Shown one piece after another: positions 5,903 to 13,249 of a DNA stretch of 26,095 nt (the first letter of the stretch is position 1; the number at the start of each line of letters is the position of its first letter). The stretch lies in the IMG/VR virus record IMGVR_UViG_2531839476_000012, one strand, 5' to 3'. Source of the DNA: a virus. Lineage: Duplodnaviria; Heunggongvirae; Uroviricota; Caudoviricetes. Under the pieces are notes generated by a model. That model ran no database searches. It saw nothing but the letters and a program-made list of their open reading frames with translations, and was not told the origin of the DNA. The position numbers and the translations under genes were made by a program.

Positions 5903-6103
5903 ATGACAACTGACGATATCGAAAGCTACTTCGGCAGTATTGAGAAAGTTGCTGCTTTTTTCGGCATAACAACTGAAGCCGTTTATCAGTGGCGAAACCG
6001 TCCGGGCCAGTTAATTCCAAAAGGACGTGCAGCAGAAGCTGCATATAGAACTTGCGGACGGTTGCCATTTAAACCTGAGCTTTATGAAAAATCTAATGGA
6101 TAA
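5903..6103 (+). CDS. cro: Cro-like small DNA-binding regulator, 66 aa
   Basis: Divergent from cI across the operator region; GGAGGG Shine-Dalgarno; small basic protein with an HTH-like segment (ITTEAVYQWRNRPGQ). Confidence 0.75.
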   Translation: MTTDDIESYFGSIEKVAAFFGITTEAVYQWRNRPGQLIPKGRAAEAAYRTCGRLPFKPELYEKSNG

Positions 6104-6692
6104 ATCGATTAACAGAAACCACAGAACGATGAGGCTAACCGTGGGTAAGCATCACTGGAAAGTAGAAAAACAGCCTGAGTGGTACGTGAAAGCTGTCAGA
6201 AAAACTATCGCAAAGTTGCCGGGTGGTTACGCTGAAGCAGCTGACTGGCTGGATGTAACAGAGAACGCATTATTTAACCGCCTTCGTGCCGATGGCGATC
6301 AGATTTTCCCGCTGGGATGGGCAATGATTTTGCAACGTGCTGGTGGAACTCACTTCATTGCTGACGCAGTGGCGCAGTCTGCAAATGGCGTCTTTGTGTC
6401 TCTTCCTGACGTCGAGGATGTGGACAACGCCGATATTAACCAGCGCCTGCTGGAAGTCATTGAACAGATCGGCAGTTATTCAAAACAGATTCGTTCAGCA
6501 ATTGAAGACGGTGTAGTGGAACCGCATGAGAAGACAGCAATTAACGACGAGCTGTACCTCTCAATTTCGAAGCTGCAGGAGCATGCAGCACTGGTCTACA
6601 AAATTTTTTGCATTTCAGAAAGTAATGACGCCCGCGAGTGTGCAGCTCCGGGCGCCGTGGCGTGTCGTGACTGTGGAGAAACTAACGCATGA
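6084..6692 (+). CDS. Hypothetical early regulatory protein in the cII position (about 199-202 aa)
   Basis: ORF directly downstream of cro in the rightward operon. Start is ATG 6084 or ATG 6096, both overlapping the cro 3' end. C-terminal CxxC-like motif (CRDCGETNA). Assignment is by position only. Confidence 0.5.
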
Positions 6693-7027
6693 ACAGTTTA
6701 ACAACACACTACCGTCGCTCGCAACTGATTGCGCTTCCTGTACCGGGTGGAAAAGCGAAGGTGGAGTATTGCTATGCAGTAAATGTACCAGGTGACAGGG
6801 AAATTGTAACCCACAGCTTTGCAGAGTGGGCTGTGGGTGATTTCAACCGGCAGAAGGAGACAGTCCTTTGCGACAAGTTAACCGCTGGTTCAAAGATCAC
6901 TACGGAGTGCCCGTCAGAGTCATTCGTTGGGAGCCGGAAACACAACGTGTTATCTACCTCCGCGAAGGCTATGAGCATGAGTGCTTCAGCCCGCTCGAAC
7001 AGTTTCGTCGTAAATTCAGGGAAATAG
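6689..7027 (+). CDS. Hypothetical protein, 112 aa, with a suspect low-complexity C-terminal half (possible frameshifted gene)
   Basis: ATGA start/stop overlap with the upstream gene. The second half is Ser-rich, while an alternative frame over the same DNA reads a more protein-like sequence (see 6868-7047). Confidence 0.35.
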
Positions 7028-7047
7028 AGGTCGGTCATGAGCACTAA
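6868..7047 (+). CDS. Candidate small ORF (59 aa, TTG start) or displaced C-terminus of the preceding gene
   Basis: Perfect AAGGAG Shine-Dalgarno at 6854-6859, 8 nt before TTG 6868. Translation [59 protein letters not shown], ending TAA 7045-7047. Below the ORF-track size cutoff. Confidence 0.35.
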
Positions 7048-7978
7048 ATTAACCGGCTATGTATGGGATGGTTGCGCTGCATCAGGCATGAAATTATCCA
7101 GCGTGGCAATTATGGCCCGCCTGGCTGATTTCAGTAATGACGAAGGTGTGTGCTGGCCATCAATTGAAACCATTGCCCGCCAGATTGGCGCGGGGATGAG
7201 TACCGTCAGAACGGCTATCGCACGGCTGGAAGCAGAAGGCTGGTTAACGCGTAGGGCGCGTCGCCAGGGTAACCGCAATGCGTCGAATGTTTATCAGCTT
7301 AACGTTGCGAAGCTTCAGGCAGCGGCATTTTCTCAACTGTCAGATTCTGACCCGTCAAAATCTGACGCATCAAAATCTGACCCGTCAAAATTTGATGCGT
7401 CGAAATCTGGCAAAAAAGCGGGTTTTCACCCGTCAGAATCTGGTGGGGATCCGTCAGTAAAATCAAAACATGATCCGTCAGATAAAAAAACTTCTCGTCC
7501 GGACGCTTCGCAACCGGACACGCAGACGGCTGAACAGGATTTTTTAACTCGCCATCCTGATGCGGTTGTATTCAGCCCTAAAAAGCGCCAGTGGGGGACG
7601 CAGGATGATTTGACCTGCGCACAGTGGCTCTGGAAAAAAATCATCGCCCTGTACGAGCATGCCGCCGAATGTGACGGCGAGGTGGTTCGTCCCAAAGAAC
7701 CGAACTGGACAGCCTGGGCAAACGAAATTCGCCTGATGTGTGTGCAGGATGGTCGTACTCATAAACAAATCTGCGAGATGTACAGCCGCGTCAGTCGCGA
7801 TCCGTTCTGGTGCCGTAACGTGCTCAGCCCGTCGAAGCTGCGGGAAAAATGGGATGAGCTTTCCCTGCGCTTATCGCCGTCCGTCAGCACGTACACCGAA
7901 AAACGCGAAGACCCGTACTTCAAAGCCAGTTACGACAACGTGGACTACAGCCAGATCCCGGCAGGATTCAGGGGGTGA
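7037..7978 (+). CDS. Replication initiator (O-like; N-terminal winged-helix DNA-binding domain, SD(P/A)SK repeat linker, C-terminal domain), 313 aa
   Basis: N-terminal HTH region (SVAIMARLADFSNDEGVCWPSIETIARQIGAGMSTVRTAIARLEAEGWL); internal tandem 15-bp iterons encode SDPSKSDASKSDPSKFDASKS; position after the cII-like gene mirrors lambda O with its internal ori. Confidence 0.7.
   Translation: MSTKLTGYVWDGCAASGMKLSSVAIMARLADFSNDEGVCWPSIETIARQIGAGMSTVRTAIARLEAEGWLTRRARRQGNRNASNVYQLNVAKLQAAAFSQLSDSDPSKSDASKSDPSKFDASKSGKKAGFHPSESGGDPSVKSKHDPSDKKTSRPDASQPDTQTAEQDFLTRHPDAVVFSPKKRQWGTQDDLTCAQWLWKKIIALYEHAAECDGEVVRPKEPNWTAWANEIRLMCVQDGRTHKQICEMYSRVSRDPFWCRNVLSPSKLREKWDELSLRLSPSVSTYTEKREDPYFKASYDNVDYSQIPAGFRG
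7346..7490. repeat. Putative replication origin: 15-bp tandem iterons with internal dyad CGTCA-N5-TGACG, followed by an A-rich tract
   Basis: TCTGACCCGTCAAAA / TCTGACGCATCAAAA / TCTGACCCGTCAAAA / TTTGATGCGTCGAAA in tandem (7346-7405), further CCGTCAG-containing copies to about 7480, then GATAAAAAAA (7481-7490). Confidence 0.65.
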
Positions 7979-7980
7979 TC

Positions 7981-8469
7981 ATGAGTCTTTTGAATGACGT
8001 TCAGAAATTCATTGAAGCCCATCCGGGGTGTACTTCCGGAGACATTGCGGATGCTTTTGCAGGTTACTCACGACAGCGCGTTCTGCAGTCAGCAAGCAAG
8101 TTACGTCAGAGTGGGCGTGTGGCTCACCGTTGTGAAGGGGATACACGCAGACATTTCCCGCGGCTGACTGAGATACCGCAGGAGCCGGAACCGCAACCAG
8201 TTCGTGAATCCAGACCTGTGCGCAATTTCTATGTCGGCACTAACGATCCCCGGGTGATTTTGTGCCTGACCCGCCAGGCGGAAGAACTGGAGTCCAGGGG
8301 CTTATACCGTCGTGCTGCAACGGTGTGGATGGCGGCATTCCGTGAAAGCCACTCCCAGCAAGAGCGAAACAATTTTCTTGCGCGTCGTGAGCGGTGTTTA
8401 CGGAAAAGCAGCAAGCGCGCTGCATCGGGTGAAGAGTGGTATCTGTCAGGGAATTACGTGGGGGCTTAA
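7981..8469 (+). CDS. Hypothetical protein with a PerC/ANR-like C-terminal motif, 162 aa
   Basis: ATG 7981 with a GGGGG Shine-Dalgarno; C-terminal segment (ELESRGLYRRAATVWMAAFRESHSQQERNNFLARRERCL) recalled as resembling PerC/ANR-family regulators. Confidence 0.5.
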   Translation: MSLLNDVQKFIEAHPGCTSGDIADAFAGYSRQRVLQSASKLRQSGRVAHRCEGDTRRHFPRLTEIPQEPEPQPVRESRPVRNFYVGTNDPRVILCLTRQAEELESRGLYRRAATVWMAAFRESHSQQERNNFLARRERCLRKSSKRAASGEEWYLSGNYVGA

Positions 8470-9122
8470 TGAGTAATAAATATTGCCAGGCGCTGGTGGA
8501 GCTGCGGAACAAACCAGCCCATGAACTGAAGGAAGTGGGCGATCAGTGGCGCACGCCGGACAACATTTTCTGGGGAATTAACACCCTGTTTGGCCCGTTT
8601 GTTCTGGATCTGTTTACTGATGGTGATAACGCCAAATGCGCCGCGTATTACACTGCGGAAGACAACGCGCTGGCGCATGACTGGTCAGAACGTCTTGCGG
8701 AGCTTAAAGGTGCTGCCTTTGGTAATCCCCCGTACAGCCGCGCCAGTCAGCATGAGGGGCAATACATCACCGGCATGCGTTACATCATGAAGCATGCCAG
8801 TGCCATGCGTGATAAAGGCGGGCGCTATGTTTTCCTGATCAAAGCTGCCACCAGCGAAGTTTGGTGGCCGGAAGATGCAGACCATATTGCTTTTATTCGC
8901 GGGCGTATTGGTTTTGAACTGCCAGCCTGGTTTATCCCGAAGGACGAGAAGCAGGTGCCGACAGGCGCTTTCTTCGCTGGTGCTATTGCTGTTTTCGACA
9001 AGACCCGGAAGGGACCGGCAATCAGCTACATCGGGCGCGATGAACTTGAGGCATGTGGTGAGGCCTTTCTGGCGCAGGTTCGCCAGCAGGCGGAAAAACT
9101 GGTCAGGGAGATGGCGGCATGA
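8469..9122 (+). CDS. Phage orphan DNA N6-adenine methyltransferase, 217 aa
   Basis: Catalytic NPPY motif (AFGNPPYSR); TAATG overlap with the upstream stop; no adjacent restriction endonuclease gene. Confidence 0.8.
   Translation: MSNKYCQALVELRNKPAHELKEVGDQWRTPDNIFWGINTLFGPFVLDLFTDGDNAKCAAYYTAEDNALAHDWSERLAELKGAAFGNPPYSRASQHEGQYITGMRYIMKHASAMRDKGGRYVFLIKAATSEVWWPEDADHIAFIRGRIGFELPAWFIPKDEKQVPTGAFFAGAIAVFDKTRKGPAISYIGRDELEACGEAFLAQVRQQAEKLVREMAA

Positions 9123-11674: not shown

Positions 11675-13249
<1,575 letters not shown>

Follow-up and report, generated by a model that had tools for sequence, protein, structure and literature searches.

The window analysed here, a stretch of viral DNA of 26,095 nucleotides (26 kb), contains a tandem array of 15-bp repeats that lies inside an open reading frame and is translated as a peptide repeat, which raises the question of what the array is conserved for. 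The initial annotation had proposed a replication origin embedded in the initiator gene, with the array doubling as a protein linker. This proposal is supported computationally by conservation of the DNA, covariation of the array with the N-terminal domain, the position of an AT-rich segment, a linker predicted to be disordered and a C-terminal domain related to that of lambda O. We consider it highly probable that vegetative replication of this SfII/SfIV-type lambdoid prophage starts from an origin at 7338-7495, inside its own initiator gene at 7037-7978.

The initiator gene and its domains

The gene and its parts, with the evidence used to define them, are as follows.

7037-7978, + strand: replication initiator gene, 313 aa, hybrid lambda-O-class "initiator-solo" (PHROG 391, homologs)
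7037-7336, + strand: N-terminal winged-helix DNA-binding domain, aa 1-100 (Pfam HTH_36, AF2, Foldseek)
7520-7876, + strand: C-terminal domain, aa 162-280 (BLASTP to lambda O and phi80 gp15; AF2)
7949-7975, + strand: C-terminal tail SQIPAGFRG (8/9 residues identical to those at the very C-terminal end of E. coli DnaT)

Over its full length, the initiator matched PHROG 391, "replication initiation O-like" (5.5e-135), and the gene is 98-99% identical to its annotated counterparts in SfII, SfIV, and related phages. In the N-domain, Pfam searches identified HTH_36 at aa 23-70 (4.2e-11), the other Pfam matches being only of the GntR and MarR types. The AF2 model of this domain is folded (pLDDT 70-89), with MarR- and TFE-type winged helices as the best Foldseek matches. 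Phage_rep_O (PF04492) was not detected in the N-domain by Pfam, and in BLASTP comparisons the N-terminal part resembled neither lambda O nor phi80 gp15. The C-domain is similar to both lambda O (3e-26, 31% identity) and phi80 gp15 (4e-25, 35% identity) in BLASTP searches, and PHROG 277 and 9773, also "replication initiation O-like", match aa 143-278. It is modeled by AF2 with pLDDT 84-96 and has no Pfam match even at E = 10. A PDB sequence search with the initiator returned weak MarR matches to the N-domain only, and the winged-helix matches obtained with Foldseek against PDB were likewise confined to the N-domain. The designation of the gene as O-like therefore holds for the C-domain, which is homologous to that of lambda O, but not for the HTH_36 N-domain, and no P-like loader gene accompanies it. 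The name "Replication protein 15" suggested phi80 as a close relative, a possibility that was rejected as the C-domain alone is shared.

The linker between the two domains (aa 102-160) is predicted to be disordered, with AF2 pLDDT <50 and no secondary structure. Assignment to the pentapeptide-repeat family (PF00805, a beta-helix with the repeat A(D/N)LXX) was rejected on the same grounds, the linker having no Pfam match.

Structure of the iteron array

When TRF was run on the whole window, the top-scoring tandem repeat was found at 7346-7409, with a period of 15, 4.3 copies, 81% matches and the consensus TCTGACCCGTCAAAA; an alternative period of 30 gave 2.1 copies and 88%. A repeat search added degenerate copies at 7418-7447, 7448-7462, and 7472-7486, so that the further copies placed up to about 7480 in the initial annotation could be traced as far as 7486, and the A-rich tract noted at 7481-7490 reads GATAAAAAAA. 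The proposed 15-bp tandem iterons with an internal dyad were confirmed: the exact form CGTCA-N5-TGACG occurs a single time, at 7353-7367, with a one-mismatch copy in the array at 7383-7397, and the looser form GTCA-N5-TGAC is found at 15-bp intervals, at 7339, 7354, 7369, 7384, and 7399, and once more at ~7431. Both motif searches of the whole 26 kb led back to this region, with 7/7 matches to TCAAAATCTGAC (two mismatches or fewer) within 7339-7411 and 4/4 exact matches to the core GAYCCGTCA within 7349-7480. The following features were defined.

7338-7412, no strand assigned: five abutting 15-bp iterons, unit TCTGAC-NCR-TCAAAA (TRF, repeat search, motif search)
7427-7445, no strand assigned: sixth iteron copy CACCCGTCAGAATCTGGTG, in the nearly invariant block TTTSACCCGYCAGAATCTGG (third-position conservation, frame-shifted relatives)
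7448-7486, no strand assigned: two GATCCGTCAG(W)(W)AAA repeats, 24 bp apart, with one Dam (GATC) site each (repeat search, homolog conservation)
7454-7495, no strand assigned: AT-rich segment, candidate DNA-unwinding element, with an A7 run at 7484-7490 (72% AT)

In the five abutting iterons, a GTCA-N5-TGAC dyad is found at each unit junction. The unit of 15 bp corresponds to five codons, and the array is therefore translated as (S-D-x-S-K)n, forming the disordered linker between the folded domains; in the reading frame of ORF 7037-7978 the array codons give SDPSKSDASKSDPSKFDASKS, which bears out the claim that the iterons encode a peptide repeat. The two GATCCGTCAG(W)(W)AAA repeats are conserved at 0.87-1.00 among 71 unique homologs, and the most distant relatives keep both. 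The DnaA box TTWTNCACA is absent from the entire 26-kb window, and GATC sites are not enriched in it (88 sites vs ~102 expected).

Directly 3' of the iterons, 7454-7495 forms the most AT-rich 40 bp of the gene. This position is conserved, as in 65 of 76 homologs the AT-richest 40 bp begin 0-8 nt past the first GATCC. The corresponding stretch of lambda has 78-80% AT, whereas the candidate element is shorter and less AT-rich.

Conservation of the array at the DNA level

Conservation was compared among about 80 homologs (81 in the codon-bias count) from many Enterobacterales genera. In the repeats of these homologs, the first Ser is encoded by TCT in 85% of cases (background 9%), the next codon is GAC in 81%, Ser4 is encoded by TCA in 86% (background 16%), and Lys by AAA in 199/200 (background 62%), whereas the third ("spacer") codon of each iteron unit varies freely. 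The major-codon frequency was 0.93 in the adjoining block, and for 60 conserved columns taken from the N-domain in this set of sequences it was 0.55 (Mann-Whitney p = 2.6e-7). Within the block TTTSACCCGYCAGAATCTGG, third codon positions are 0.94-1.00 conserved, and a Ser/Pro codon varies at its first base. The one GGN codon within the block has diverged to the extent seen in the N-domain (0.49), so the block is not simply of recent origin.

The DNA motif is also retained when its reading frame changes. In phiP27 the iteron motif is spaced 15, 15, 33, and 32 bp, and the other frame yields an unrelated peptide. At the locus L162, GTTTTCACCCGTCAGAWTCTGAC is read two ways, as GFHPSDSD and VFTRQNLT, and at the Klebsiella prophage locus L176, TTTTGACCCGTCAGAATCTGG is retained and read as VLTRQNLG instead of FDPSESGG.

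Codon identity within the array is inflated by slippage, which homogenises tandem repeats, but conservation across genera is not explained in this way. The distinction bears on the reading in which the array is a low-complexity peptide linker generated by replication slippage, the DNA being functionless and the codon identity a result of recent duplication and concerted evolution. Copy-number changes of whole units among near-identical alleles are what slippage would give, and the region is predicted to be disordered. However, synonymous sites are fixed across genera in the array while those of the N-domain are near saturation, codons with an invariant third base accept non-synonymous change, other frames of the same DNA give unrelated peptides, and spacings that are not multiples of three occur with other N-domains (23 bp in mEp460_4F5; 20, 24, and 23 bp in lambda). 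Taken together, these observations make a functionless slippage product very improbable.

Judged from these sequences, selection in the array acts on the DNA, and the peptide appears to be mostly a passenger that would need only to remain open and unstructured. That the peptide repeats every five residues follows simply from the 15-bp length of the DNA unit. Of the dual constraint originally proposed, the part concerning DNA is upheld by near-fixed codons and independence of frame; the part concerning the peptide is for the most part not, given the free spacer codon and the unrelated peptides encoded in other frames.

Copy number and mosaic structure

The initial annotation had suggested comparing iteron number among relatives. 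Among alleles that are ~99% identical, the number ranges from 3 to 6 and changes in 15-bp steps. Sequence, and not number, is therefore the plausible determinant of specificity, and the earlier suggestion that iteron number and sequence together set replicon specificity is retained here for sequence only.

BLAST boundaries placed a mosaic junction just 3' of the array.

7482-7519, no strand assigned: mosaic junction between an "N-domain plus origin" module and an exchangeable C-domain (BLAST boundaries)

Positions 1-483 of the gene query are common to phiNP, LLS, Eeyore, and Phi06_2987, and positions 446-942 are common to mEp460_4F5, whose N-domain and repeats differ. With the breakpoint in this position, the array is co-inherited with the N-domain. 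Diverged N-domains are accompanied by altered iteron units, and in mEp460_4F5 the same C-domain is joined to an unrelated N-domain, together with six 23-bp repeats that are read in all three frames. No free-standing copies of the block, e.g., in satellites, were identified, as 114/114 evaluable exact copies in IMG/VR lie in such genes or in 5'-truncated remnants of them.

The junction and the palindromic nature of the array could also point to a structural role, as an mRNA hairpin, a DNA cruciform or a recombination hotspot at the mosaic boundary, rather than to a protein-binding origin. The predicted RNA folding is far above that of shuffled controls (-49.5 kcal/mol, z = -4.9), and an imperfect inverted repeat of 35 nt is found over 7338-7412. 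On the other hand, it is the primary sequence that is conserved, including loop and spacer A-tracts; compensatory pairing changes were not seen, and the gain and loss of units ignores any global hairpin. The junction at 7482-7519 lies downstream of the array and not inside it. An Rfam scan of 6000-9000 gave nothing but a spurious miRNA match on the palindromic array, below threshold (30.7 bits vs a gathering score of 97). RNA folding was rejected as the primary explanation, since the z-score is expected from stacked dyads in any case and a covariation signal is absent, and we regard a structural or hotspot function as having very little probability. A terminator-like hairpin on the minus strand (7432-7419) was also discarded, as it is not conserved in KpF5.

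Comparison with known origins

In lambda, ori-lambda lies in gene O and consists of four 18-bp dyad iterons and an AT-rich region; the Stx phages 933W and P27 have six iterons. GenBank places the lambda iterons at codons 117-145 of 299, with the AT-rich stretch after them, and the present array occupies codons 101-150 of 313. In both cases the origin (here putative) is located centrally in the initiator gene, where the inter-domain linker is encoded, with an AT-rich stretch on its 3' side and homologous C-domains. The dyads are in both cases arranged around a CAAAA-type centre (TCCCTCAAAACGAGGGA in lambda, CGTCAAAATCTGACG in the present array). The present system differs from lambda in having an HTH_36 N-domain instead of Phage_rep_O, another iteron sequence and no P gene following the initiator gene. 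Moreover, its units abut at 15 bp and are read in a single frame, whereas lambda spacings of 20, 24, and 23 bp lead to three frames, and its protein ends in a DnaT-like tail where lambda O has NTDWIYGVDL. The product of lambda-type O genes is lengthened by extra iterons, and replication is lost when the iterons carry synonymous mutations (PMC7466680).

Iterons that also serve as a peptide repeat have a direct precedent in phi80, whose origin in gene 15 (JX871397) has four annotated gp15-binding sites at codons 122-147. The 21-bp iterons are in frame and give the heptapeptide repeat FPKTGKS / FPKSGIT / FPKTV in the linker, 21 bp being a multiple of 3. This system differs from the present one in its lambda-type N-domain, its iterons TTCCCGAAAACGGGAA and the P-like gene 14 downstream. 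Gene 18 of P22 contains four internal repeats of ~20 bp, and gene 18 of phage L six 11-bp repeats (PMC8022706). These are distantly related origin-binding initiators that, as in the present case, have their own repeats in the coding region; they differ in protein family, in repeat sequence and in their partner, a phage DnaB-type helicase (gp12). Theta plasmids (pSC101, R6K, RK2, F, P1) similarly have direct-repeat initiator sites beside an AT-rich unwinding element and a winged-helix initiator, but their iterons lie outside the rep gene, usually together with DnaA boxes, and Rep consists of tandem winged-helix domains. An origin of the plasmid type was rejected, as the present array is intragenic and TTWTNCACA does not occur in the window.

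These comparisons also bear on whether the repeats bind the initiator purely for regulation (autoregulation, titration/handcuffing or transcriptional roadblock), with replication starting elsewhere in the genome. Conservation at the DNA level and covariation with the N-domain indicate a DNA-binding target, not origin firing, and at 72% AT the adjoining segment is modest. However, the proven lambda and phi80 origins show the same order, iterons followed by an AT-rich stretch, at the place where an O-class gene encodes its linker; the motif forms no other repeat cluster in the 26-kb window, a DnaA box is absent, and the AT-rich maximum keeps its place beside the array. A purely regulatory role is therefore considered unlikely, and an origin at 7338-7495 remains the preferred interpretation.

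Literature searches, in which the SfV genome paper (PMC134923) was not covered, found no published description of the origin of this initiator family. The arrangement is the textbook "ori inside O" design of lambda, phi80, and P22, and represents an ordinary, well-supported new example with nothing conceptually beyond lambda and phi80.

Proposed mechanism and the DnaT-like tail

By analogy with lambda, phi80, and P22, we infer a sequence of iteron binding, AT-rich unwinding and helicase loading. The N-terminal winged helix would bind the dyad-symmetric 15-bp iterons, probably as dimers, its targets being the five copies at 7338-7412, the sixth at 7427-7445 and the two GATCCGTCAG repeats at 7448-7486. 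The bound initiator may then form an O-some-like nucleoprotein complex, upon which the adjoining AT-rich stretch at 7454-7495 would open. Finally, the lambda-O-type C-domain and the C-terminal tail would bring in the host DnaB-DnaC helicase complex in a phage without a P-like or DnaC-like loader. This last step is a conjecture, because the loader gene is absent: downstream of the initiator, the genes encode PerC-like, Dam, repressor, RusA, KilA-N-like, HNH, and Q-like proteins.

The protein can be described as an "initiator-solo", having no phage loader gene nearby and terminating in the C-terminal motif of the host DnaT. The DnaT-like tail is common to initiators with differing C-domains and is associated with the absence of a downstream loader, as just 2 of the 51 homologs ending in this tail have a loader of any kind within 1.5 kb. 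Domain homology is not implied by the name "primosomal protein I" given by RAST, since the alignment of the family profile to DnaT by hhalign is limited to the last 17 residues. A tentative possibility, to which we assign less than even probability, is an initiator-solo lambdoid replicon in which the intragenic array is the sole phage-specific cis element and the DnaT motif (…SQIP(A/P)GFRG) recruits DnaB-DnaC or PriA/PriB, thereby replacing the loader. The two conserved GATC sites in the origin core, beside a phage Dam gene, might provide methylation control.

Distribution and significance

Of 5426 complete E. coli genomes, 1580 carry the initiator gene at near full length. Its distribution extends to SfII and SfIV, phages that convert the serotype of Shigella, and more widely through the Enterobacterales, and the K-12 prophage CPS-53 carries a 5'-truncated copy. 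Matches in plasmid databases were chromosomes mislabelled as plasmids, prophages in large plasmids, and phage-sized circles without a typed replicon, and are suggestive but no proof.

The origin coordinates offer a target for replicon typing of SfII/SfIV-type prophages and an aid both to interpreting coverage peaks after induction and to predicting replicon incompatibility or cross-activation of co-resident prophages, and they show engineers which bases not to recode. The case further illustrates that a "protein repeat" can be the imprint of an element in the DNA. A new question could arise from the group of loader-less initiators sharing the DnaT tail; if the replicon outlined above is real, the tail would mark the contact through which DnaT passes on the helicase.

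The initiator gene and its product

The replication origin of this phage very probably lies inside its own initiator gene, at 7338-7495 of the window. The gene and the predicted regions of its product are as follows.

7037-7978, + strand: replication initiator gene, 313 aa; annotated as a replication gene in SfII/SfIV-type lambdoid phages
aa 1-100: winged-helix N-domain, folded in the AlphaFold2 model
aa 102-160: unstructured segment, AlphaFold2 pLDDT below 50
aa 162-280: helical C-domain, confidently modelled (AlphaFold2 pLDDT 84-96)

The ORF shares 98-99% DNA identity with SfIV gp41, the SfII "O protein family protein" and genes of several E. coli phages, and near full-length copies were identified in 1580 of 5426 complete E. 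coli genomes. Pfam places an HTH_36 domain at aa 23-70, and PHROGs assigns the whole protein to "replication initiation O-like". Because the AlphaFold2 model, built on 47 homologs, predicts three regions, the repeats (aa 101-150) encode exactly the inter-domain linker. Foldseek matches were confined to the N-domain (MarR- and TFE-type winged helices). The C-domain is homologous to those of lambda O (31% identity over 216 aa, E = 3e-26) and phi80 gp15 (35% identity, E = 4e-25), whereas the N-domain is unrelated to the N-domains of either protein.

The repeat array and its resemblance to proven origins

Tandem-repeat, motif and dyad searches of the window confirmed the repeats described in the initial annotation. 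Tandem Repeats Finder resolved 7346-7409, the top tandem repeat across the 26 kb, into 4.3 copies of TCTGACCCGTCAAAA (81% matches) or, as 30-bp units, into 2.1 copies (88%). A further repeat search extended the family to 7418-7447 and added the following pair.

7448-7462 and 7472-7486: two copies of GATCCGTCAG(W)(W)AAA

All seven matches to TCAAAATCTGAC at up to two mismatches fall within 7339-7411, and the core GAYCCGTCA matches exactly at four places, all within 7349-7480. The A-rich tract was present as described, and the linker reads SDPSKSDASKSDPSKFDASKS, in agreement with the proposed peptide repeat. The proposed dyad CGTCA-N5-TGACG is found in exact form once (7353-7367), but a looser GTCA-N5-TGAC recurs at every unit junction. 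The region also folds well as RNA (z = -4.9), as an RNA, cruciform or recombination element might; stacked dyads would, however, give the same folding, the sole Rfam match was spurious, and an element of this kind is highly improbable.

An origin inside the initiator gene is a textbook design (lambda, phi80, 82, P22), and iterons that double as a peptide repeat have a precedent in phi80.

Layout of the array compared with the lambda and phi80 origins
Lambda: four 18-bp iterons (GenBank-annotated); O codons 117-145 of 299; spacing 20, 24, 23 bp, hence three frames and no peptide repeat; following AT-rich segment 78-80% AT
Phi80: four gp15-binding sites (GenBank-annotated); codons 122-147; spacing 21 bp, in frame; peptide repeat FPKTGKS / FPKSGIT / FPKTV
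Window: five abutting 15-bp units, one further copy and two GATCCGTCAG repeats; codons 101-150 of 313; spacing 15 bp, in frame; peptide repeat (S-D-x-S-K)n; following AT-rich segment 7454-7495, 72% AT

The dyad CGTCAAAATCTGACG is built like TCCCTCAAAACGAGGGA of lambda, with short inverted arms and a CAAAA centre. AT content within the gene peaks in segment 7454-7495, and in 65 of 76 homologs the most AT-rich 40-bp gene window begins 0-8 nt past the first GATCC. [quoted passage not shown] Gene 18 of P22 and of L contains internal repeats of its own (PMC8022706). Our literature searches found no published description of the origin of this HTH_36-type initiator family, and the SfIV genome paper names a "replication module" with nothing further on the origin.

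Conservation of the array as DNA

Codon usage was compared across 81 homologous genes, taken from phage records and one genome per species across Enterobacterales (N-domain identity 51-99%).

Codons of the S-D-x-S-K unit, repeats versus background
Ser 1: TCT, 85% versus 9%
Asp 2: GAC, 81% versus 46%
Codon 3: free (GCA, CCG, ACA, GCG, ACG, GCC, GGG and others)
Ser 4: TCA, 86% versus 16%
Lys 5: AAA, 199/200 versus 62%

The block adjoining the array reads T TTT SAC CCG YCA GAA TCT GGN GGG GAT CCG TCA GTA AAx TCA … GAT CCA TCA in 71 unique sequences, with conservation of 0.93-1.00 at third codon positions; one Ser/Pro codon varies at its first base, and in one GGN codon the third position has diverged as far as neutral sites (0.49). 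Mean major-codon frequency was 0.93 in the block versus 0.55 in 60 conserved amino-acid columns of the N-domain, which served as internal control in the same sequences (Mann-Whitney p = 2.6e-7).

The motifs are also kept out of frame. Their spacings in phiP27 are 15, 15, 33 and 32 bp. In the homologous Citrobacter locus L162, one copy of GTTTTCACCCGTCAGAWTCTGAC reads GFHPSDSD and another VFTRQNLT, and TTTTGACCCGTCAGAATCTGG, retained at the orthologous place in a Klebsiella prophage (P0056, locus L176), reads VLTRQNLG, not FDPSESGG; the third reading frame contains TGA. To judge from these sequences, frame independence is the most direct evidence for a DNA element over a peptide element, and a slippage product of significance for its peptide only is very improbable. 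Of the dual constraint originally proposed, that on the DNA is upheld by codon bias and frame shifts, but the peptide has only to stay open and unstructured, the conserved entity being the DNA.

Linkage to the DNA-binding domain and copy number

BLAST boundaries define a mosaic junction at 7482-7519. Gene bases 1-483, comprising N-domain and array, are common to phiNP, LLS, Eeyore and Phi06_2987, whose C-domain differs, while bases 446-942 are common to mEp460_4F5, whose N-domain is unrelated. The mEp460_4F5 linker (locus L010, 1626-1764) carries six 23-bp repeats of its own (CATCGGGTCAAAATGNCC…), spread over all three frames, which seem to represent a second kind of iteron of this design, as yet undescribed. 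Altered units accompany diverged N-domains: GTTGACCCGTCAAAT in L177, TCTGAACCKTCARAA in phiP27 and L162, and CCTCCAGAATCTGGA in L163, L169 and L171. All 114 evaluable exact block matches in IMG/VR lie inside such initiator genes or 5'-truncated remnants. An origin within the initiator gene, as first proposed, is borne out as the best explanation of the DNA-level conservation, the N-domain linkage and the lambda/phi80-like layout; that the array consists of regulatory binding sites, with the origin elsewhere, is unlikely.

Comparison among relatives, suggested in the initial annotation, showed that alleles ~99% identical carry between 3 and 6 iterons (allele lengths in E. coli genomes are 912, 927 and 972 bp), and number is therefore unlikely to set replicon specificity as had been supposed.

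5'-truncated gene copies occur in the E. coli K-12 prophage CPS-53/KplE1 and at loci L256 and L292. These copies (query 234-942, 98.4% identity; yfdO position, adjoining yfdN) retain the iteron array with most of the DNA-binding domain gone, and the initiator of a related superinfecting phage might bind these chromosomal iterons. Two circular, phage-sized E. coli "plasmids" in PLSDB with no replicon type given, NZ_CP081716.1 (37.7 kb) and CP085522.1 (41.5 kb), contain an initiator and array related to those of the window at 85-90% identity and are probably excised phage genomes assembled as episomes.

Neighbouring genes, Dam sites and a DnaT-like tail

The early region of the window contains no gene for a P-like or DnaC-like protein, a helicase or a primase. 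The initiator gene is followed by PerC-like, Dam, repressor, RusA, KilA-N-like regulator, HNH and Q-like genes, the PerC-like gene standing where lambda has gene P.

7448-7451 and 7472-7475: conserved GATC (Dam) sites, one within each of the two best-conserved repeats of the origin
7949-7975: DnaT-like tail SQIPAGFRG, aa 305-313 (SQIPPGFRG in E. coli DnaT)
7975-8469: PerC-family (yfdN-like) regulator gene; GTG start overlaps the initiator stop codon
8436-9122: phage Dam gene, 3' of the initiator gene
12087-13103: IS-type transposase ORF (PHROG 3598, 3.8e-175), inserted directly 3' of the Q-like antiterminator gene

Both GATC sites are retained by the most distant relatives. Here, and at about half of the 81 related loci, the 1.5 kb downstream of the initiator includes a gene for a Dam-type methylase. 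There was no overall GATC enrichment. Methylation control of the origin through its two GATC sites is possible.

The initiator C-terminus (…VDYSQIPAGFRG) and that of E. coli DnaT (…EPDSQIPPGFRG) are identical at eight of the last nine residues, and hhalign against DnaT aligns the tail alone. A …P.GF[RK] ending, at most three residues from the C-terminus, is found in 51 of 81 homologs irrespective of their C-domain type; the tail was seen at the 3' ends of initiator genes in loci L002-L011 and L093-L172. Over the final 76 nt of the gene (7903-7978), SfV, mEp460, cdtI, 2H10 and many Stx2a/Stx2c phages show 97-99% identity, although no other part of their initiator genes aligns with this one as DNA. 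A second mosaic module boundary lies here and carries the tail motif; the tail is mobile and widespread. Loader genes were sought within 1.5 kb downstream of the 81 initiators.

Tail type and downstream helicase-loader gene
GFRG-type: 51 initiators, loader in 2
IWKE-type: 20 initiators, loader in 0
Other: 10 initiators, loader in 7

Initiators with a GFRG-type tail tend to lack a downstream phage gene for a helicase loader, and the tail may be a host-factor-recruiting motif; how DnaT itself recruits DnaB-DnaC is stated to be unknown (PMC4132743, PMC13377028). By homology and analogy, initiator dimers would bind the iterons via the winged helix, the adjoining AT-rich DNA would then open, and the lambda-O-type C-domain would then recruit the helicase, which must be that of the host because the phage encodes no loader.
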